Origin: a virus
Direction: 5' to 3' (one strand)
UHGV virus genome: UHGV-1767466
DNA: 15,204 nt
The notes under the pieces were generated by a model that ran no database searches, was not told where the DNA came from, and saw only the letters and a list, made by a program, of their open reading frames with translations. Of the stretch, positions 14 through 12,140 are shown in pieces. The first letter of the stretch is position 1, and every line of letters starts with the position of its first letter. The position numbers were made by a program, and so were the translations under genes.

Positions 14-100
14 ATGCGCACTTCTGCAAATCAGCGTTATAACCAGCTTCTTTCCCTTTTACTTGTGGCACTTCCGGTAATCGGAGGTGGGAATTATGAA

Positions 101-436
101 ATGCACAACGATCCTCATTCCTGGCCTGATTTACTTGAACTGTTACAGAGCTGGTGGCGTGGAGACACACCGCTGGGTGCAGTGATTATGTCGATCGTTA
201 TGGCTGGCTTGCGCATTGCCTATTTTGGCGGGGGAGGGGGCTGGAAGCGAAAAACGCTCGAGATTTTGCTCTGTGGTGCTCTGACGCTGACTTTTGCATC
301 CGCTCTTGAGTATGTCGGATGGCCCAAATCGCTTTCTGTTGCCATTGGTGGCGGCGTTGGGCTGATCGGTGTCGATGCTATTCGTGGGGCTGCAATGCGA
401 GTAATCGGTAACAAATTTGGTAGCTCGAAGGAGTAA
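101..436 (+). CDS. Holin, lambda S-like family (111 aa)
   Basis: ORF frame 14..436. ATG at 101 sits 9-13 nt after GGAGGTGGG (83-91). The protein has hydrophobic helices and a charged C-terminus (RVIGNKFGSSKE) and resembles lambda S in size and layout. It lies immediately upstream of an R-like endolysin. The ATG at 14 has no RBS and overlaps the terminator T-tract. Confidence 0.75.
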   Translation: MHNDPHSWPDLLELLQSWWRGDTPLGAVIMSIVMAGLRIAYFGGGGGWKRKTLEILLCGALTLTFASALEYVGWPKSLSVAIGGGVGLIGVDAIRGAAMRVIGNKFGSSKE

Positions 437-439
437 TTT

Positions 440-916
440 ATGCAGGTACTAAATCCTCAGCGTAAAGCTTTCCTTGATATGGTGGCCTGGTCAGAAGGAA
501 CGGATAACGGGCGACAACCGACACGTAACCACGGTTATGACGTTATTGTCGGTGGCGAACTATTCGCTGATTACTCCGATCATCCTCGCAAACTTGTCAC
601 GCTAAACCCAAAACTCAAATCAACAGCAGCCGGACGTTACCAGCTTCTTTCCCGTTGGTGGGATGCTTACCGTAAACAGCTTGGTTTGAATGACTTCTCC
701 CCCAAAAGCCAGGACGCTGTGGCATTGCAGCAGATTAAAGAGCGTGGCGCTTTACCGATGATTGATCGCGGTGATATCCGTCAGGCTATCGATCGTTGCA
801 GCAATATCTGGGCGTCGTTACCTGGTGCAGGTTACGGTCAGTATGAACATAAAATCGGTGACCTGATTGCCCGATTTAAAAAAGCTGGTGGGGTAGTAAA
901 TGAAGCTGAGATATAG
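440..916 (+). CDS. R: Endolysin, lambda R-type lytic transglycosylase (158 aa)
   Basis: Translation MQVLNPQRKAFLDMVAWSEGTDNGRQPTRNHGYDVIVGG...SNIWASLPGAGYGQ closely matches my recollection of lambda R across its whole length, including the catalytic Glu context WSEGT. Same length (158 aa). SD GAAGGAG at 427-433. Confidence 0.93.
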   Translation: MQVLNPQRKAFLDMVAWSEGTDNGRQPTRNHGYDVIVGGELFADYSDHPRKLVTLNPKLKSTAAGRYQLLSRWWDAYRKQLGLNDFSPKSQDAVALQQIKERGALPMIDRGDIRQAIDRCSNIWASLPGAGYGQYEHKIGDLIARFKKAGGVVNEAEI

Positions 917-1292
917 GCTGGTTATTGTTGCCTTCGTTGTTACCGTCATTGGTTCCTTCATCTGGTCTGCTGGGCATTACTACAGCAAATATCAGCACGA
1001 AAAGGAGCGTGCTGATGAGGCTGTACGAAATGCTGAATCAGCAACTGCCATTACCCGTAACGTTCTGCAATCACTGCAAATCATCAATACAGTTATAGAG
1101 GCTAACCAGCATGCAAAAGAGCAGATCGCACTGGACGCATCGGGAGCCTCGGCTGATATCCGGGTTGCTGTTGCGAATGATGATTGCACTAATCGCCCTG
1201 TCCCTGCTGGCGCAGTTAAGCGGCTGCAACAATTCGCGAACGGTCTACGTCAAAGTGCCGGTAGTCCCGTTACCGGCCAGCCTGACGGCTGA
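900..1292 (+). CDS. Rz-like i-spanin (inner-membrane spanin subunit, 130 aa)
   Basis: Starts 17 nt before the endolysin stop. N-terminal TM segment (LVIVAFVVTVIGSFIW) followed by a charged, helix-prone periplasmic domain. Canonical position after the endolysin, and a lipoprotein ORF overlaps it in the +1 frame. Confidence 0.7.
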   Translation: MKLRYRLVIVAFVVTVIGSFIWSAGHYYSKYQHEKERADEAVRNAESATAITRNVLQSLQIINTVIEANQHAKEQIALDASGASADIRVAVANDDCTNRPVPAGAVKRLQQFANGLRQSAGSPVTGQPDG

Positions 1293-1434
1293 CACCCCGC
1301 AACCGGAAATCCCTGACAACCTGACGTGGGGCCAGAGCCTAGATTTAAACGTCAGTCTCCTATCAGCGCTTGGGCAGTGCAACCGGGATAAGGCAGATAT
1401 TAGGCAAACTGTAAAGAAACAAGCGGGCCAATAA
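1177..1434 (+). CDS. Rz1-like o-spanin (outer-membrane lipoprotein, about 85 aa precursor)
   Basis: In the +1 frame relative to Rz, from ATGATG at 1177. Signal peptide MMIALIALSLLAQLSGC with lipobox LSGC; mature part is proline-rich (VPVVPLPASLTADTPQPEIP). It extends 142 nt past the Rz stop, giving an overlapped rather than embedded architecture. Confidence 0.7.
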   Translation: MMIALIALSLLAQLSGCNNSRTVYVKVPVVPLPASLTADTPQPEIPDNLTWGQSLDLNVSLLSALGQCNRDKADIRQTVKKQAGQ

Positions 1435-2476: not shown

Positions 2477-2827
2477 ATGCCGCCACGAATCCCGAAAGCC
2501 TGCCGTGCTCGAGGTTGCCGTAATACCACCACAGACCCGTCAGGCTACTGCGAAAGCCACAAAAGCGAAGGCTGGAAGCAGTACAAACCTGGACAGTCCC
2601 GACACCAGCGCGGTTATGGTTCGAAGTGGGATGTTATCCGCGCGTGTGTGCTGAAGCGTGATAAAGGTTTATGTCAGTTATGTCTGCGTGCTGGTGTGGT
2701 GCGTGAGGCGAAAACCGTTGACCACATCATTCCCAAAGCGCATGGCGGCACCGATGCCGACAGTAACCTGCAGAGTCTGTGCTGGCCGTGTCATAAGGCG
2801 AAGACGGCCCGTGAACGGCTGAAGTAA
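2477..2827 (+). CDS. HNH endonuclease (phage packaging-associated, HK97 gp74-like), 116 aa
   Basis: Cys-rich N-terminus (CRARGCRNTTTDPSGYCESH). HNH core DHIIPKAHGGTDADSNLQSLCWPCHKAK with His...Asn...His and a CxxC zinc ligand pair. Sits directly upstream of the terminase genes, as is typical for cos-phage HNH proteins. ATG at 2477, GGAG at 2463-2466. Confidence 0.9.
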   Translation: MPPRIPKACRARGCRNTTTDPSGYCESHKSEGWKQYKPGQSRHQRGYGSKWDVIRACVLKRDKGLCQLCLRAGVVREAKTVDHIIPKAHGGTDADSNLQSLCWPCHKAKTARERLK

Positions 2828-2952
2828 GAACCAGTTCCCATTGCCAGAGGGGAGGGGCGGGTCAAATCCCTGTGACCTGACGTCTTCCGGACTGCCCGCC
2901 CCATCGTTTTTTTATACCCGCGAAAAATGAAATTTAACCAGGAGTGCCGCAT
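2828..2952. other. Candidate cos / packaging-initiation region between HNH and TerS
   Basis: 125-bp non-coding gap exactly where HK97-like phages carry cos. Contains an 8-bp GC inverted repeat GGGGCGGG (2854-2861) / CCCGCCCC (2895-2902) flanking a GACGTC palindrome (2879-2884), followed by a T7 run (2907-2913). The cut site cannot be located from sequence alone. Confidence 0.4.
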
Positions 2953-3447
2953 ATGGCTGGAACGGCGGGGCGTTCCGGGCGTCGCCCCAAGCCAACGGCG
3001 CGCAAGGCGCTGGCCGGAAACCCCGGCAAGCGAGCCCTGAACAAAGATGAACCTGTTTTTACGCCCATCAAAGGTGTTGAGCCACCGGAGTGGTTCGCTG
3101 AAGAAGATCTCCCTCTCGCCACGATCATGTGGCAACTGACAACCAAAGAACTCTGCGGTCAGGGCCTGCTGTGCGTGACTGACCTCGCGGTGCTTGAGCG
3201 GTGGTGCGTGGCCTACGAGTTCTGGCGACGTGCCGTGAAAAATATTGCCAGACAGGGCAACACCATCACCGGTGCAATGGGTGGCATGGTCAAAAATCCG
3301 GAGCTGACCGCCAAGAAAGAACAGGAGTCCGAGATGAGCAGCACGGGGGCAATGCTCGGACTCGACCCCAGCAGCCGCCAGCGTCTGATTGGCCTGGCGG
3401 GGCAGAAGAAAGCCACTAACCCGTTTCTGAAAATCATCGAATCATGA
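2953..3447 (+). CDS. Terminase small subunit (P27-family TerS), 164 aa
   Basis: ATG at 2953 preceded by AGGAG (2940-2944) at 8-nt spacing; the ORF track begins at an in-frame GTG at 2944. Basic N-terminus ([22 protein letters not shown]) typical of TerS. The stop overlaps the TerL start (ATGA at 3444-3447). Confidence 0.85.
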
Positions 3448-5177
3448 GCCGGAAATCTTACCCCAACGTAAATGCTGCCAATCAGTATGCCCGTGATGTC
3501 GTGCGCGGAAAGATTGTGGCCTGCCAGTTTGTGATTCAGGCCTGCCAGCGCCATCTTGATGACCTGATGGCGGAAAAAAGTAAGTCGTTTCGTTACCGCT
3601 TCGACAAGGACCTGGCTGAACGGGCCGCGAAATTTATTCAGCTGTTGCCACACACCAAGGGGGAGTGGGCATTCAAGAGGATGCCCATCACGCTGGAACC
3701 GTGGCAGCTCTTTGTGATCTGCTGTGCGTTTGGCTGGGTCAATAAAGGCTCCCGGCTGCGCCGCTTCAGGGAGGTGTATACCGAAATCCCCCGTAAGAAC
3801 GGCAAATCGGCAATCTCTGCCGGTGTTGCCCTGTATTGTTTTGCCTGTGATAACGAGTTTGGCGCGGAAGTGTATTCCGGTGCCACGACAGAGAAACAGG
3901 CGTGGGAAGTCTTTCGCCCGGCGCGACTGATGTGTAAACGCACACCCATGCTGACGGAAGCGTTCGGGATTGAGGTTAACGCCTCAAACATGAACCGTCC
4001 GGAGGATGGCGCGCGGTTTGAACCGCTGATCGGTAACCCCGGTGATGGTTCATCACCCCACTGTGCCGTGGTGGATGAATATCACGAGCACGCCACCGAT
4101 GCGCTTTATACCACGATGCTTACCGGGATGGGCGCGCGACGTCAGCCACTGATGTGGGCCATCACCACCGCCGGGTACAACATTGAGGGGCCGTGCTACG
4201 ACAAGCGGCGGGAAGTTATCGAGATGCTCAACGGTTCGGTACCCAACGATGAATTGTTCGGGATCATCTATACAGTTGACGAAGGCGATGACTGGACCGA
4301 CCCGCAGGTGCTGGAAAAAGCTAACCCGAATATTGGCGTGTCGGTTTATCGCGAATTTTTGTTAAGTCAGCAGCAGCGTGCGAAAAATAACGCCCGTCTG
4401 GCAAACGTCTTTAAAACAAAACACCTCAATATCTGGGTGTCGGCGCGTTCGGCGTATTTCAACCTGGTGAGCTGGCAGAGCTGCGAGGATAAATCACTGA
4501 CCCTTGAGCAGTTCGAGGGGCAACCGTGCATTCTGGCCTTTGACCTGGCGCGTAAGCTGGATATGAACAGCATGGCGCGACTTTATACCCGCGAGATTGA
4601 CGGTAAAACGCATTACTACAGTGTGGCCCCGCGTTTCTGGGTACCGTATGACACGGTGTACAGCGTCGAGAAAAATGAAGATCGACGGACAGCCGAACGC
4701 TTTCAGAAATGGGTGGAAATGGGCGTTCTGACCGTTACCGATGGTGCAGAGGTGGATTATCGCTACATCCTCGAAGAGGCCAAAGCGGCGAACAAAATCA
4801 GCCCGGTCAGCGAGTCACCCATCGACCCCTTCGGGGCGACCGGGTTGTCACATGACCTTGCTGATGAAGACCTGAATCCCGTCACTATCATTCAGAACTA
4901 CACCAACATGTCCGACCCGATGAAAGAGCTGGAAGCGGCAATTGAATCGGGGCGCTTTCATCATGATGGCAATCCCATCATGACCTGGTGTATCGGCAAT
5001 GTGGTCGGCAAAACCATTCCGGGTAACGATGATGTGGTGAAACCCGTCAAAGAGCAGGCGGAAAACAAAATTGACGGTGCAGTTGCGCTGATTATGGCGG
5101 TTGGCAGAGCCATGCTGTACGAGAAAGAAGACACGCTGTCTGACCACATTGAGTCCTATGGGATCCGCTCGCTTTAA
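3444..5177 (+). CDS. Terminase large subunit (TerL), 577 aa
   Basis: Length and position fit. Walker A-like P-loop ([14 protein letters not shown]), acidic Walker B-like stretch (AVVDEYHEH), and a C-terminal nuclease-type region with conserved Asp residues ([13 protein letters not shown]). Translationally coupled to TerS. Confidence 0.93.
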
Positions 5178-5188
5178 CTGAGGTAATT

Positions 5189-5371
5189 ATGATCATGCTG
5201 ATTCTCGCGCCTCTGGTGGGCGTGCTGGGGGCGCTTTTGCTGGCGTATGGTGCCTGGATGATTTATCCCCCGGCGGGGTTTGTTGTTGCCGGGGCGTTGT
5301 GCCTGTTCTGGTCGTGGCTGGTGGCGCGATATCTCGACCGTACACAGCTGTCTGTTGGTGGAGGTAAATAG
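5189..5371 (+). CDS. Small membrane protein (60 aa, two predicted TM helices), function unknown
   Basis: Exactly fills the gap between TerL and portal. GAGG at 5180-5183, 5 nt before ATG 5189. Its stop TAG (5369-5371) overlaps the portal GTG start by 1 nt. Sequence is almost entirely hydrophobic ([26 protein letters not shown]...[14 protein letters not shown]). Confidence 0.5.
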
Positions 5372-6612
5372 TGTTCTTTTCGGGATTATTTCAACGAAAA
5401 AGTGACGCACCGGTGACCACGCCAGCAGAGCTGGCGGAGGCTATCGGGCTGTCCTACGACACCTATACCGGAAAGCAGATCAGCAGTCAGCGGGCCATGC
5501 GACTGACGGCGGTTTTTTCCTGCGTCAGAGTGCTGGCAGAGTCGGTCGGGATGTTGCCCTGCAATCTGTATCACCTGAACGGCAGCCTGAAGCAGAGAGC
5601 CACCGGCGAACGTCTGCATAAACTGATCTCCACGCATCCCAATGGCTATATGACGCCGCAGGAGTTCTGGGAGCTGGTGGTCACCTGTCTGTGCCTGCGG
5701 GGAAACTTTTACGCCTACAAAGTGAAAGCATTTGGCGAAGTGGCTGAACTGCTGCCCGTCGATCCCGGCTGTGTGGTACCGAAGCTTAACAGTAGCTGGG
5801 AGCCGATCTATCAGGTCACATTCCCGGATGGCTCCACGGATGTACTGAGCCAGGAGGATATCTGGCATGTGCGCACGCTGACGCTGGACGGACTGGTGGG
5901 GCTGAATCCCATCGCCTATGCCCGCGAGGCAATATCGCTGGCAGCTGCGACCGAAGAGCACGGGGCCAGACTGTTCAGCAATGGCGCGGTGACGTCGGGG
6001 GTGTTGCGTACAGAGCAGACGCTGTCAGATCAGGCTTATGAGCGCCTGAAGAAAGATTTTGAGGAGCGTCACACCGGGCTTGGCAATGCTCACCGCCCGA
6101 TGATCCTTGAGATGGGGCTGGACTGGAAGTCGATGGCGCTGAACGCCGAGGACAGCCAGTTCCTGGAAACCCGCAAGTTTCAGCTTGAAGAAATCTGTCG
6201 TCTGTTCCGGGTGCCGTTGCACATGGTGCAGAACACCGATCGCGCCACCTTCAACAATATCGAAGAGCTGGGGCTGGGATTTATCAACTATTCACTGGTG
6301 CCGTATCTGACCCGCATCGAACAGCGGATCAACACCGGACTGGTACGAAAAAGTAAGCAGGGCGTTTATTACGCCAAATTTAACGCCGGGGCGTTACTGC
6401 GCGGGGATATGAAGTCCCGTTTTGAAGCCTACGCCACCGGGATCAACTGGGGAATTTACTCTCCCAATGACTGCCGCGACCTGGAAGATATGAATCCGCG
6501 TCCCGGTGGTGATGTCTATCTCACACCGATGAACATGACCACGAAACCCTCCGATGGCAGTAAAGCCGGTAAGCAGAAGGATAACGCCAATGCAGACGAA
6601 ACAACGTCTTGA
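5371..6612 (+). CDS. Portal protein (HK97-family), 413 aa
   Basis: GTG start at 5371 preceded by GGTGGAGGT (5357-5365). Size and position between terminase and prohead protease fit. Acidic Asp/Glu-rich C-terminal tail typical of portals. Confidence 0.9.
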   Translation: MFFSGLFQRKSDAPVTTPAELAEAIGLSYDTYTGKQISSQRAMRLTAVFSCVRVLAESVGMLPCNLYHLNGSLKQRATGERLHKLISTHPNGYMTPQEFWELVVTCLCLRGNFYAYKVKAFGEVAELLPVDPGCVVPKLNSSWEPIYQVTFPDGSTDVLSQEDIWHVRTLTLDGLVGLNPIAYAREAISLAAATEEHGARLFSNGAVTSGVLRTEQTLSDQAYERLKKDFEERHTGLGNAHRPMILEMGLDWKSMALNAEDSQFLETRKFQLEEICRLFRVPLHMVQNTDRATFNNIEELGLGFINYSLVPYLTRIEQRINTGLVRKSKQGVYYAKFNAGALLRGDMKSRFEAYATGINWGIYSPNDCRDLEDMNPRPGGDVYLTPMNMTTKPSDGSKAGKQKDNANADETTS

Positions 6613-7240
6613 TGTACCGCTGAGTCTGAAATCTGTCAGTGACTCCGGTGAGTTTGAAGGGTATGGCTCCGTCTTTGGTGTAAAGGACAGCCACGATGAT
6701 GTGGTGATGTCCGGGGCATTTGCTGCTTCCCTGCGGGCGTGGAGTGACAGAAAAGCGTTACCTGCGCTGCTCTGGCAGCACCGCATGGATGAACCCATCG
6801 GTGTTTACACCGAAATGAAGGAAGACGATGTCGGGCTTTACGTCAGGGGACGGTTGCTTATTGATGATGATCCCCTCGCAAAACGCGCACATGCACACAT
6901 GAAGGCCGGTTCGTTAACCGGCCTTTCTATTGGGTACGTCCTGAAAGACTGGGAATACGACCGGAGCAAAGAAGCCTTTCTGCTGAAAGAAATCGACCTC
7001 TGGGAAGTCAGCCTGGTGACGTTCCCGTCTAACGACGAGGCGCGGATCAGCGACGTCAAGAACGCACTGGCCCGCGGGGAAATCCCCGAACAGAAAAAAA
7101 TCGAAAGAGTCCTGCGTGATGTCGGACTCTCCCGTACCCAGGCCAAAGCATTCATGGCCGGGGGCTATGGCGCACTGTCCCTGCGCGACGCTGAGGATGT
7201 GGGCTCTGCACTGAATGCACTGAAAAATCTGAACTTCTAA
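6590..7240 (+). CDS. Prohead maturation protease (HK97 gp4-like, S78 family), 216 aa; alternative start 6554 (228 aa)
   Basis: Conserved N-terminal motif EFEGYGSVFGVKDSHDDVV, characteristic of HK97-type prohead proteases, and a C-terminal region typical of this family. ATG 6590 has a weak AAGGA upstream and overlaps the portal end by 23 nt; ATG 6554 has no RBS. Confidence 0.85.
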   Translation: MQTKQRLDVPLSLKSVSDSGEFEGYGSVFGVKDSHDDVVMSGAFAASLRAWSDRKALPALLWQHRMDEPIGVYTEMKEDDVGLYVRGRLLIDDDPLAKRAHAHMKAGSLTGLSIGYVLKDWEYDRSKEAFLLKEIDLWEVSLVTFPSNDEARISDVKNALARGEIPEQKKIERVLRDVGLSRTQAKAFMAGGYGALSLRDAEDVGSALNALKNLNF

Positions 7241-7254
7241 TCAGGAGAAATACG

Positions 7255-8460
7255 ATGGCGGTTGATATTAAAGATGTCGAACAGGTCGCGCAGGAGCTGC
7301 AGCAGAAGTTTGACGACTTCAAAGCAAAGAACGACAAGCGCGTGGATGCGATTGAGCAGGAAAAAGGCAAGCTTGCCGGGCAGGTGGAAACCCTGAACGG
7401 GAAACTCAGCGAGCTGGAAAATCTCAAAAGTGATCTTGAAAAAGAGCTGCTTGAGCTGAAACGTCCGGCTGGTGGAGCGCAAAATAAACTGGCCACCGAG
7501 CATAAAGAGGCGTTTGTGGGCTTCCTGCGTAAAGGCCGTGAAGACGGTCTGCGCGATCTGGAGCGTAAGGCATTGCAGGTGGGTACCGATGAAGACGGTG
7601 GCTACGCCGTGCCGGAAGAATTGGATCGCAACATTCTTAACCTGCTGAAAGATGAAGTGGTGATGCGTCAGGAAGCCACGGTGATCACCGTTGGCGGTTC
7701 CGACTACAAAAAACTGGTGAATCTGGGCGGTACGGCTTCCGGATGGGTGGGAGAAACGGATACGCGATCCCAGACTGCCACCTCCAGACTGGAGCTGATT
7801 GAACCTCTCATGGGGGAAATTTACGGCAACCCGCAGGCTACCCAGAAAATGCTGGACGATGCCTTCTTCAACGTGGAGGCCTGGATCAACAGCGAGCTGG
7901 CAACCGAATTTGCCGAACAGGAAGAAATTGCCTTTACCTCAGGCGATGGCACCAAGAAGCCGAAAGGGTTCCTAGCGTATGAATCCACTGATGAAACCGA
8001 CAAGGTCCGGGCGTTCGGCAAACTTCAGCATATTGTATCCGGCGAAGCGACCGCGGTGACCGCAGACGCCATTATCAAACTGATTTACACGCTGCGTAAG
8101 GCACACCGCACTGGCGCGAAGTTCATGATGAACAACAACAGCCTGTTTGCCATCCGTCTGCTGAAAGACACCGAGGGTAACTATCTGTGGCGTCCGGGGC
8201 TGGAACTGGGGCAGCCGTCCTCTCTGGCGGGTTACGGTATCGCTGAAAACGAACAGATGCCGGATATCGCCGCTGATGCGAAAGCCATTGCATTTGGTAA
8301 CTTCAAACGGGGTTACACCATCGTTGACCGTATCGGCACCCGCATTCTGCGTGACCCGTACACCAATAAACCGTTTGTCGGTTTTTATACCACCAAGCGC
8401 ACCGGCGGGATGCTGGTCGATTCGCAGGCCATCAAACTGCTGAAGATTGCAGCGGCGTAA
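7255..8460 (+). CDS. Major capsid protein, HK97 fold with N-terminal delta (scaffolding) domain, 401 aa
   Basis: AGGAG at 7243-7247. The first ~100 aa are a coiled-coil-like delta domain (KDVEQVAQELQQKFDDFKAKNDKRVDAIEQEKGKLAGQVETLNGKLSELENLKSDLEKELLELKR). Followed by an HK97-type capsid body, directly downstream of the prohead protease. Confidence 0.92.
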   Translation: MAVDIKDVEQVAQELQQKFDDFKAKNDKRVDAIEQEKGKLAGQVETLNGKLSELENLKSDLEKELLELKRPAGGAQNKLATEHKEAFVGFLRKGREDGLRDLERKALQVGTDEDGGYAVPEELDRNILNLLKDEVVMRQEATVITVGGSDYKKLVNLGGTASGWVGETDTRSQTATSRLELIEPLMGEIYGNPQATQKMLDDAFFNVEAWINSELATEFAEQEEIAFTSGDGTKKPKGFLAYESTDETDKVRAFGKLQHIVSGEATAVTADAIIKLIYTLRKAHRTGAKFMMNNNSLFAIRLLKDTEGNYLWRPGLELGQPSSLAGYGIAENEQMPDIAADAKAIAFGNFKRGYTIVDRIGTRILRDPYTNKPFVGFYTTKRTGGMLVDSQAIKLLKIAAA

Positions 8461-8509: not shown

Positions 8510-8710
8510 ATGATCCTGAAACAAGATCTGAAATGGTCACCGGACGGTATGCGTGTTGAGGTCATTCGGGCCGGTGAGTATGACGACGGGGCGCTTCCTG
8601 CCCGGGTGCAGGAGATTGCACTTCAGGCCGGGTTAGCAGAGCGCGGAACCAGTGCAAAAAGCAGTAAAGCGACAAAAGAGAAAAAAGCCACGACCAGTAA
8701 AGAGGGCTGA
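8510..8710 (+). CDS. Hypothetical small protein with Lys/Ser/Thr-rich C-terminal tail (66 aa)
   Basis: ORF in the gap between capsid and connector genes, same strand. Its stop is 2 nt before the next gene start. Low-complexity tail SAKSSKATKEKKATTSKEG. No family recognised. Confidence 0.4.
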   Translation: MILKQDLKWSPDGMRVEVIRAGEYDDGALPARVQEIALQAGLAERGTSAKSSKATKEKKATTSKEG

Positions 8711-10489: not shown

Positions 10490-10660
10490 ATGTTTGTCAA
10501 ACCTGTTAAAGGGCGGTCAGTTCCTGACCCTGCCCGCGGCGACCTTTTGCCCGCCGAAGGGCGAAATGTTGACGAGAACAACTACTGGCTGCGCCGTGAA
10601 GCAGCGGGTGATATCCGGCGCGTGAATAAAAAGGTGAACACCGATGACGATAAGCTTTAA
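10490..10660 (+). CDS. Small conserved-position protein upstream of tail sheath (56 aa), absent from the ORF track because under 60 aa
   Basis: My translation from ATG 10490 is MFVKPVKGRSVPDPARGDLLPAEGRNVDENNYWLRREAAGDIRRVNKKVNTDDDKL, with no internal stop. GAGGA (10478-10482) is 7 nt upstream. Its 3' end overlaps the sheath start by 17 nt. Mu-like and P2-like tail modules often carry a small gene here. Confidence 0.45.
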   Translation: MFVKPVKGRSVPDPARGDLLPAEGRNVDENNYWLRREAAGDIRRVNKKVNTDDDKL

Positions 10661-12140
10661 CACCATTCCGTCGAATACGCTGGTTCCGCTGTTTTATGCG
10701 GAAATGGATAACCAGGCGGCGAATACTGCACAGGACAGCGGAGCATCGCTGCTGATTGGTCATGCCAATAACGGTGCAGAGATTGTTGCCAACAGTCTGG
10801 TACTGATGTCGTCGGCAGACTATGCACGCCAGATTTGTGGTGCGGGAAGTCAGCTGGCGCGTATGGTCGAGGCTTATCGCCAGACCGACCCGTTTGGCGA
10901 GCTGTATGTGATTGCCGTTCCTGAATCCACAGGCGCGGCGGCAACGGTTACGCTGACGGTGACCGGGGCGGCAATCGAAACCGGCACGGTGAATGTCTAT
11001 GTGGGACGTACCCGCGTGCAGGCTCCGGTGACCAACGGCGATAACGTCACGACGATTGCCAGCAATATCAAAGATGCCATCAATGCCGTTCCGGCCCTGC
11101 CGTTTACGGCTTCATCTTCGGCAGGCGTGGTCACACTGACCGCGCGTCATAAGGGGCTTTGCGGGAATGAAATTCCTGTCAGCCTCAATTACTACGGCTT
11201 TGGTGGGGGCGAAGTGCTGCCAGCGGGCGTACAGATTGCCGTGGCGACGGGTACCGCCGGAACGGGTGCTCCGGTTCTCACCGGCGCGGTGGCTGCAATG
11301 GCGGATGAGCCGTTTGATTATATCGGTCTGCCGTTCAACGACACGGCCTCCGTTAACACGCTGGTGACCGAGATGAACGATACCAGCGGTCGCTGGAGCT
11401 ATGCGCGTCAGCTGTATGGTCATGTGTATACGGCAAAGATCGGCACGCTGTCAGAACTGGTGACCGCAGGTGACCAGTTTAACCAGCAGCACATTACCCT
11501 GGCGGGGTACGAAAAAGAGACCCAGACGCCTGCCGACGAACTGGCGGCAAGCCGTACCGCCCGCGCAGCGGTGTTTATTCGCAACGATCCGGCACGTCCC
11601 ACGCAGACCGGTGAGCTGGTGGGTATGCTGCCTGCGCCGAAGGGGAAACGGTTCACGATGACCGAACAACAGACCCTGCTGTCTCATGGCGTGGCAACGG
11701 CGTATGTCGAAAGCGGGGTACTGCGCATTCAGCGTGATGTCACCACGTACAGGAAAAACGCTTACGGGGTTGCGGATAACAGCTACCTAGACAGTGAGAC
11801 TCTGCATACCAGCGCGTATGTACTGCGCAAACTGAAATCTGTCATTACCAGTAAGTACGGGCGTCACAAGCTTGCCAGTGACGGTACCCGCTTTGGTCCC
11901 GGTCAGGCGATTGTCACCCCGGCGGTGATCAAAGGGGAACTGCTGGCAACCTACCGTCAGCTTGAGCGTGCGGGGATCGTGGAAAACTACGAACTGTTTA
12001 AGCAGTACCTGGTTGTGGAGCGTGATGCCAGCGATCCGAACCGCCTGAACACGCTGTTCCCGCCTGACTATGTTAACCAGTTGCGTGTCTTTGCCGTGGT
12101 TAACCAGTTCCGTCTTCAGTATTCAGAGGAGTCTGCATAA
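10644..12140 (+). CDS. Contractile tail sheath protein (Mu gpL-like), 498 aa
   Basis: Size (~500 aa), position immediately upstream of a ~118 aa tube gene, and sheath-like sequence character (MTISFNTIPSNTLVPLFYAEMDN..., Gly/Ala/Thr-rich middle). Coupled to the tube gene (TAATG at 12138-12142). Confidence 0.88.
   Translation: MTISFNTIPSNTLVPLFYAEMDNQAANTAQDSGASLLIGHANNGAEIVANSLVLMSSADYARQICGAGSQLARMVEAYRQTDPFGELYVIAVPESTGAAATVTLTVTGAAIETGTVNVYVGRTRVQAPVTNGDNVTTIASNIKDAINAVPALPFTASSSAGVVTLTARHKGLCGNEIPVSLNYYGFGGGEVLPAGVQIAVATGTAGTGAPVLTGAVAAMADEPFDYIGLPFNDTASVNTLVTEMNDTSGRWSYARQLYGHVYTAKIGTLSELVTAGDQFNQQHITLAGYEKETQTPADELAASRTARAAVFIRNDPARPTQTGELVGMLPAPKGKRFTMTEQQTLLSHGVATAYVESGVLRIQRDVTTYRKNAYGVADNSYLDSETLHTSAYVLRKLKSVITSKYGRHKLASDGTRFGPGQAIVTPAVIKGELLATYRQLERAGIVENYELFKQYLVVERDASDPNRLNTLFPPDYVNQLRVFAVVNQFRLQYSEESA

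Follow-up and report, generated by a model that had tools for sequence, protein, structure and literature searches.

A small predicted membrane hairpin gene overlapping the portal gene in HK97-type phage head modules

Introduction

To our knowledge, gp40 and gp20 of phage T4 are the only characterised case of a membrane protein that works with a portal. The T4 gp20 dodecamer serves as the prohead initiator. It is bound to the inner membrane, requires the small viral chaperone gp40 for its assembly, and cross-links to YidC (PMC9958956). The present study concerns a small open reading frame (ORF) located between the large terminase (TerL) gene and the portal gene of the virus genome UHGV-1767466. 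The whole stretch of this genome that was analysed, 15,204 nucleotides in length, is referred to as the window. The product of the small ORF is a predicted two-helix membrane hairpin that belongs to the PHROG 502 family.

Close relatives of this phage have been described. At the DNA level, the window region shares 96-98% identity with Shigella phages SfI, SfII, and SfIV, with Salmonella phage ST64B, and with several phages of E. coli, whereas the identity with phiP27 is 85%. The homologues of the small ORF in SfI, SfII, ST64B, and phiP27 showed 92-98% identity. Homologues were annotated as Sb3 (ST64B), "putative integral membrane protein" (phiP27 and SfII), "membrane protein", or Gp3 (phiKO2), and the hairpin ORF is unannotated in SfV, SfIV, and PY54.

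The window protein matched phrog_502, i.e., "membrane protein", over residues 1-55 (E=3.2e-27). Against a family hidden Markov model (HMM), built from 154 family sequences, it scored 76 bits and phiKO2 gp3 scored 75 bits. Judged by its sequence, the window gene is a further member of a catalogued family without assigned function, and it is not novel in itself. The new part is the pattern at the family level, i.e., the spread across phyla, a near-invariant overlap with the portal gene, modular inheritance, and a sharply conserved turn.

Results

The small ORF and its junctions

An ORF with its own Shine-Dalgarno sequence, filling the gap between the TerL and portal genes and overlapping the portal GTG by one base of its stop codon, had been described in the original prediction. 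All of these elements were found in the window (Table 1). The GC content at third codon positions (GC3) was 0.67 in the small ORF, compared with 0.65 in TerL and 0.68 in the portal gene. No promoter-like site was found 5' of the small ORF, and no terminator was found between it and the portal gene. Because it lacks its own promoter and terminator and resembles its neighbours in GC3, the small ORF was considered a gene of the late operon.

The small ORF was retained in all close relatives fetched. A typical moron, i.e., an independently expressed cargo gene, was rejected as its identity, as the gene lacks its own promoter and terminator, does not deviate in GC3, and is not patchy among close relatives. 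The same features, with the conservation of the family across phyla, agree with the earlier view that the gene is an old resident and not recent cargo.

Within the small ORF (window 5207-5234, + strand), a GC-rich stem of 12 pairs precedes TTTTG and resembles a terminator. Nine terminator-like sites were counted in the region, which is at chance level (shuffle expectation, 6.2 +/- 2.5).

In prokaryotes, overlaps such as UGAUG, at which termination is followed by reinitiation, usually lead to coupled and roughly proportional synthesis of two proteins. Genes joined in this way typically encode partners of a common complex or pathway.

Linkage to the portal gene

Homologues were collected by two motif scans that used the peptide only, with no genomic context. 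The first scan detected 42 loci in GTDB representative genomes and 573 confirmed stretches in IMG/VR, and the second pattern, built from divergent members, detected at least 559 confirmed stretches. The 42 genome loci and 160 viral loci were fetched, i.e., 202 in total. The hairpin ORF was placed directly 5' of a portal homologue, with 24-99% identity to the window portal, in 201 of the 202 loci. Homologues therefore occupy the same junction in other phages and prophages, where the original prediction had proposed to search for them. The exception was L010, a copy with a 1-nt deletion. At another locus, L035, no portal match was found, but the S78 prohead protease gene lies 1.1 kb downstream, and the portal gene is probably fragmented.

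The junction with the portal gene was near-invariant. Among 112 distinct junctions, 93 showed a 1-nt overlap (TGATG, TAATG, or TAGTG), five an ATGA overlap, and two a 23-nt overlap, whereas a gap of 2-15 nt was found in eight and a gap of more than 100 nt in four. The window conforms to the family position, with the ORF adjoining the 5' side of a PF04860 portal gene through TAGTG (5369-5373). On the other side, the distance between the hairpin and TerL genes ranged from -6 to 2,183 nt, and TerL types were shuffled relative to portal types. The proposed coupling to packaging genes therefore stands for the portal gene, through the overlap, but not for the packaging motor as such, because TerL is exchanged independently.

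Mosaic breakpoints

Mosaic breakpoints were located at approximately 5116-5160, within the TerL 3' end. The TerL of phage SfV is 97.7% identical to the window TerL, the DNA similarity ends at window position 5116, and the SfV portal is 28% identical. SfV (L204, NC_003444.1) carries at 2289-2450, ahead of its portal gene, a different and divergent hairpin ORF of 53 aa, MKSLIADVIGLAGFGLLTCGVYLQFGMAPALILSGALLLVGALAMARRGTRAA, which is unannotated and scored 26-29 bits against the family HMM. Its start codon and the TerL stop overlap as ATGA. The annotated SfV portal start (2392) is probably wrong. The GTG at 2440 has a ribosome-binding site (RBS), AAGGGGGA, and the N-terminus from this start, VLLDALFRSK, resembles that of the window portal.

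In L190 and its relatives, TerL DNA identity was approximately 70% up to about position 5130 and then 94-100% through the hairpin and portal genes. Phages phi467 and 606R7 match the window from 5159 onward only. Serratia prophages showed identities of 38% for TerL, 73% for the portal, and 64-67% for the hairpin. Because the breakpoints fall in the TerL 3' end, the hairpin gene travels with the portal gene. The TerL 3' end at window 5116-5160 looks like a recombination hotspot.

This inheritance with the head and portal module is seen whatever the tail, i.e., a Mu-like contractile tail in the present phage (sheath-size ORF, 10644-12140) and a siphovirus tail in phiKO2 and PY54. It would also be expected of a virion-internal or ejection protein that is packaged with the portal or head, is released upon infection, and helps DNA cross the inner membrane of the recipient, and hydrophobic hairpins could form a channel. 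Such a protein is very unlikely here. No virion proteomics evidence was found for it, and no solved virion component resembles it. HK97 and most relatives lack it, and an almost wholly hydrophobic hairpin of 60 aa (grand average of hydropathy, 1.26) would be hard to keep soluble in the capsid.

Other occupants of the junction

A tblastn search with the window portal gave 2,059 isolated-phage records, from which an evenly spread sample of 18 was taken. A two-helix ORF abutted the portal gene in four of the 18 phages, a rough estimate from a small sample. TerL adjoined the portal gene without an annotated gene between them, by an overlap or a gap of 2-220 nt, in seven, and other inserts were found in seven, including Phd/Doc, MazF, RNA-binding proteins, and hypothetical genes. 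Of all occupants of the junction, the hairpin recurred most often. No portal block was conserved enough for a 14-base DNA pattern.

A direct junction of TerL and portal genes had been taken as the normal arrangement. This is correct for HK97 but not in general, since the sample contained hairpins in four and other inserts in seven of 18 phages, and the SfV hairpin had escaped annotation.

The inserts in Javan57 (L208, Streptococcus), CJIE4-1 (L214, Campylobacter), and Gordonia/Arthrobacter phages (L222 and L223) were toxin-antitoxin genes (Phd/Doc and MazF) and, in actinophages, genes annotated as "RNA-binding protein". The TerL-portal junction appears to be a general insertion site.

An insertion spot known to hold toxin-antitoxin and RNA-binding genes elsewhere could also hold a host-directed membrane effector, i.e., a protein for exclusion, for modulation of the membrane or lysis timing, or a mild toxin, which merely occupies the junction and uses the late transcript without being tied functionally to the portal. 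PHROGs places phrog_502 in the category "moron, auxiliary metabolic gene and host takeover", and many related phages do not have the gene. In addition, the conserved residues all lie within the membrane or at the turn, as would be expected if the protein acted on the membrane itself or on one of its universal components. However, a hitch-hiking gene would not keep a 1-nt overlap with the portal gene in 93 of 112 junctions across three phyla, nor would it stay on the portal side of the breakpoints. The lack of an own promoter and terminator and of any compositional deviation also argues against an effector, and expression only in the late phase is ill-suited to exclusion in lysogens. A known exclusion or defence protein was rejected, as PADLOC matched none of its families to four hairpin members and the hhalign probability with T4 Imm was 0.2%. 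The exclusion or toxin-like factor of the original prediction thus found no support, and an effector in general is considered rather unlikely.

Selection and conserved residues

The small ORF was compared with five diverged enterobacterial copies. The ratio of nonsynonymous to synonymous substitution rates (dN/dS) was 0.09-0.27 at dS of 0.7-2.0 for codons 1-46, and 0.5-2.6 for the C-tail codons 47-60. Because dN/dS of the core is low while synonymous sites vary freely, it is the peptide that is conserved rather than a nucleotide spacer. Conservation of the spacer only would have spoken against the ORF; the amino acids are kept although synonymous sites are near saturation, and the ORF is genuine. 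It is a real protein-coding gene under purifying selection. The terminal Gly-Gly is an exception to the free C-tail, being invariant among enterobacterial members because its codons form the portal RBS.

The family core is G-A-W-x-[IV]-Y-x-P-A-G-[FY] at the helix turn, with glycines at positions -10, -7, 0, +9, and +14 (Table 2). The window protein fits this motif, with two helices, the turn, and G11, G14, G21, and G35.

Table 2. Conserved alignment positions of the hairpin family. Positions are numbered with G21 of the window protein as 0, and frequencies are over 150 representatives.
Position	Residue	Frequency
-14	R	.44
-13	D	.70
-10	G	.85
-7	G	.89
-1	Y	.69
0	G	1.0
+1	A	.76
+2	W	.87
+5	Y	.83
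+7	P	.91
+8	A	.87
+9	G	.95
+10	F or Y	.87
+11	I	.82
+14	G	.99
+26	R	.58

These data bear on the possibility that the ORF is a translational coupling device, which supplies the weak portal GTG with ribosomes at a fixed, low rate while its peptide matters little. The overlap is conserved family-wide, the portal RBS lies in the last codons of the ORF, the portal start is GTG in the window, and the C-tail is under no other constraint. HK97 has an overlap of the portal start with the TerL stop, so coupling itself may be the selected property. Yet the core amino acids are strongly conserved across phyla at freely varying synonymous sites. Retention of G-A-W-x-I-Y-x-P-A-G-F, of a hairpin rich in Gly, and of basic residues on its flanks would not be expected of a spacer ORF, and tandem-duplicated members with four helices exist. 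A mere coupling device is therefore improbable.

Several database copies (L010, P0194, P0255, P0275, and P0293) have lost the reading frame at the C5/G4 runs encoding Y-P-P-A-G (window 5264-5275) or beyond them. The deletion in L010 (Shigella flexneri CP182557) is of this kind, and some variants read through past the usual stop. These copies could be homopolymer sequencing errors or real pseudogenes.

Predicted protein and topology

By hydropathy, the hydrophobic segments of the window protein are residues 2-24 and 31-46, and 46 consecutive residues are hydrophobic. AlphaFold2, used for helix positions only, gave helices at 2-25 and 27-57 with a break at Pro27 (mean predicted local distance difference test score, 85.7). 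The protein is thus laid out as helix 1 (approximately 2-24), the turn W23-x-I-Y-P-P-A-G-F31, helix 2 (approximately 31-46), and a variable C-tail (47-60). Over the 150 family representatives, Lys and Arg residues averaged 2.0 per N-tail and 1.3 per C-tail, compared with 0.13 per loop.

Because basic residues flank the hairpin and are near-absent from the loop, both ends are predicted to be cytoplasmic under the positive-inside rule, with the Y-x-P-A-G turn on the outer side. A re-entrant hairpin is the alternative, because each hydrophobic arm has only 16-17 residues. The double-transmembrane character given in the original prediction agrees with the two hydrophobic segments, the two AlphaFold2 helices, and this topology check by basic-residue counts.

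Four representatives (P0187, P0237, P0272, and P0307) are tandem double hairpins of 102-122 aa with four helices. Their sequences suggest that hairpins may pack side by side.

A protein of this size with two hydrophobic helices and two possible starts (M1 and M3) is reminiscent of class II holins, and it could be asked whether it is a holin, pinholin, or antiholin outside the lysis cassette. This is hardly to be expected, because a complete lysis cassette is already present at 14-1434, and no holin family of Pfam or PHROGs was matched. In all 201 loci the hairpin was tied to portal genes and not to endolysin genes. Between M1 and M3 there is no charged residue, which a dual-start antiholin would need. 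The holin identity was not supported.

Family size and host range

A single-sequence search recovered 182 homologues with identities as low as 60%. They came from Escherichia, Salmonella, Citrobacter, Klebsiella, Enterobacter, Yersinia, Hafnia, and Buttiauxella. Profile searches extended the family to 1,271 clusters at 90% identity and at least 1,472 representatives at 50% identity. All 150 best-scoring representatives were 47-122 aa in length.

The phage hosts span Proteobacteria, Actinobacteria, and Firmicutes. They include Serratia, Edwardsiella, Burkholderiaceae, Massilia, Reyranella, Shinella, Rhizobium, Bradyrhizobium, Sphingopyxis, Rhodopila, Micromonospora, Ruminococcaceae, and Oscillospiraceae, and, at the level of orders, Enterobacterales, Burkholderiales, and Rhizobiales. 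Divergent members in SfV and Ralstonia YO163_4 have an altered turn, G-V-[YH]-L-Q-F-G-x-x-P-A-L-I. Other members with a differing turn motif were Mycobacterium phage Bobby gp12, annotated as "membrane protein", and those of Vibrio phages K315 and Va_91-7-154_p41.

Three records, i.e., OR844959.1 ("Enterococcus phage Efm 3-10"), L001 (Edwardsiella hoshinae NBRC 105699 contig), and L003 (contig of a Bacillota metagenome-assembled genome), share 95-98% identity with the present enterobacterial phage, and mislabelling or contamination is the probable reason.

In Pfam, no family matched the window protein (E<=0.01) or eight distant members. NCBIfam gave nothing beyond a chance permease match (E=0.18), and no solved relative was found by sequence profile against PDB or by Foldseek against PDB. 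A tblastn search of the phage collection with the consensus hairpin gave no match, for which low-complexity masking is the probable cause. In the searched literature, no description of the hairpin family was found, and the matches concerned only holins in general terms or families without relation to it. The protein of Sberro family 350024, with 33 aa, is a different one, and the window sequence was absent from the supplements of the Salmonella small-protein census.

Other genes of the window

The window is a phage late region, in which adaptor and head-closure genes follow the major capsid gene (Table 1). The ClpP-like ORF between the lysis cassette and the HNH and terminase genes may be a cargo gene, because the phage already has an S78 prohead protease. 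The PF04860 portals (L001-L223; window 5371-5400) have a short hydrophobic N-terminus, e.g., MFFSGLF, MAGLFGSL, MRGLFGAL, MGIFSGLF, or MGWFDFI, which is usually followed by basic residues.

Table 1. Coordinates of the small ORF, its junctions, and other genes of the window.
Feature	Position	Strand	Remarks
Small ORF, 60 codons	5189-5371	+	ATG 5189, TAG 5369-5371; predicted two-helix membrane hairpin, PHROG 502 family
GAGG Shine-Dalgarno of small ORF	5180-5183	+	5 nt 5' of ATG, 3 nt past TerL stop; read from sequence
Turn-motif codons 23-31, W-M-I-Y-P-P-A-G-F	5255-5281	+	family-defining motif, conserved columns
GGAGG Shine-Dalgarno of portal gene	5360-5364	+	inside Gly58-Gly59 codons of small ORF
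TAGTG stop/start overlap	5369-5373	+	small-ORF TAG 5369-5371, portal GTG 5371-5373; G 5371 common to both
Portal gene	5371-6612	+	Pfam Phage_portal PF04860, E=6e-108; constant downstream partner of hairpin family
TerL gene	3444-5177	+	Pfam; TAA stop 5175-5177; upstream neighbour, exchangeable
Holin/antiholin	14-436		phrog_126
Endolysin	440-916		
Rz	900-1292		
Rz1	1111-1434		
ClpP-like ORF, 226 aa	1462-2142	-	head-maturation/ClpP-like protease PHROGs, phrog_94 E=1e-22
HNH endonuclease	2477-2827		
TerS	2944-3447		
S78 prohead protease	6554-7240		
Major capsid protein	7255-8460		
66-aa ORF between major capsid gene and Ad1 adaptor gene	8510-8710	+	phrog_1020 (unknown function), E=1e-44

Discussion

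Possible function of the hairpin

Operon position, synteny, the geometry of the overlap, and modular inheritance all join the hairpin gene to the portal gene. We tentatively propose, with somewhat less than even confidence, that the hairpin is a portal-linked accessory of head assembly in the inner membrane, acting non-covalently. Among the options named in the original prediction, we infer that a membrane anchor fits best.

The hairpin, translated as a late gene of an SfI/ST64B/phiP27-type temperate phage, would be inserted into the host inner membrane. Ribosomes that end the hairpin ORF would re-initiate on the portal gene, and both proteins would be made together at a linked low rate. At the membrane, the hairpin may contact the portal and tether or nucleate the portal dodecamer, i.e., prohead initiation, or it may act as a chaperone of the portal. 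This role would be comparable to that of the membrane-bound gp40/gp20 initiator of T4, by analogy and without homology.

Several findings weigh against this proposal. HK97 has no small ORF, its TerL stop being in direct overlap with the portal start, and 14 of the 18 sampled phages have related portals without the hairpin gene. The hairpin gene is dispensable for HK97-type assembly in general. In an identity-matrix test of 106 non-redundant loci, hairpin identity followed the portal just slightly better than TerL (partial Spearman 0.43 vs 0.36, both p ~0.003). The claim of portal linkage is made from position, coupling, and breakpoints, and not from this test. The conserved residues sit in the membrane helices and the turn, and, owing to the variability of the cytoplasmic C-tail, no conserved surface that a soluble portal could bind is obvious on the cytoplasmic side. 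The amphipathic portal motif M-x-G-L-F-G-x-L occurs with and without an upstream hairpin gene, and the N-terminal M-x-G-L-F-G, considered as a docking partner, was therefore rejected as specific evidence. The best-scoring family members included no fusion of hairpin and portal. Homology to T4 gp40 was also rejected, with an hhalign probability of 0.1% between the family profile and gp40.

A stronger form of the proposal is that the hairpin is an ancient accessory of HK97-type head assembly. The Gly-rich hairpin, produced along with the portal by termination-reinitiation, would oligomerise in the inner membrane, possibly matching the 12-fold symmetry of the portal, and would tether or nucleate the dodecamer. 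This form is doubtful. If it is true, membrane-bound prohead initiation, as in T4 gp40/gp20, would be widespread in temperate phages of Gram-negative and Gram-positive bacteria.

A small membrane protein joined at the operon level to the portal, in approximately one-fifth of the sampled HK97-type head modules and in three phyla, has meaning for how the single portal vertex nucleates and whether assembly starts at the membrane outside T4. Phages SfI, SfII, ST64B, phiKO2, and PY54 are tractable and give a genetic handle on the gene. For annotation, an overlooked hairpin ORF leads to wrong calls of the portal start, as is probable in SfV.

Comparison with known systems

Some pipelines labelled the homologue as "head-tail joining protein W" (ON470603, ON470584, and PQ793804). 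The gpW of lambda is a soluble head-completion protein. Its gene has the same map position as the hairpin gene, between A (TerL) and B (portal), and the label, which looks like an error, is explained by this position. Identity with gpW was rejected, as there was no Pfam match and the hairpin is almost wholly hydrophobic.

Class II holins and pinholins, e.g., phage 21 S, are likewise small, have two transmembrane helices, and are expressed late. The hairpin differs from them in being encoded outside the lysis cassette, in matching none of their families, and in being tied to the portal and not to an endolysin. T4 Imm and similar exclusion proteins are also small inner-membrane proteins with two hydrophobic helices. 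However, the hairpin shows no similarity to them and lies inside a late structural operon without its own promoter.

T4 gp40 is, like the predicted hairpin, a small phage membrane-associated protein, and because it serves a portal it is reasonable to take it as a functional model. Their differences are clear: gp40 has 114 aa, is encoded far from gene 20, serves a portal of a different lineage, and has no sequence relationship to the hairpin. The closest described relatives are the PHROG 502 members of SfI, SfII, ST64B, phiP27, and phiKO2. They share with the window copy the size, the hairpin, the turn motif, and the position between TerL and portal with the stop/start overlap, and no essential difference separates them from it.

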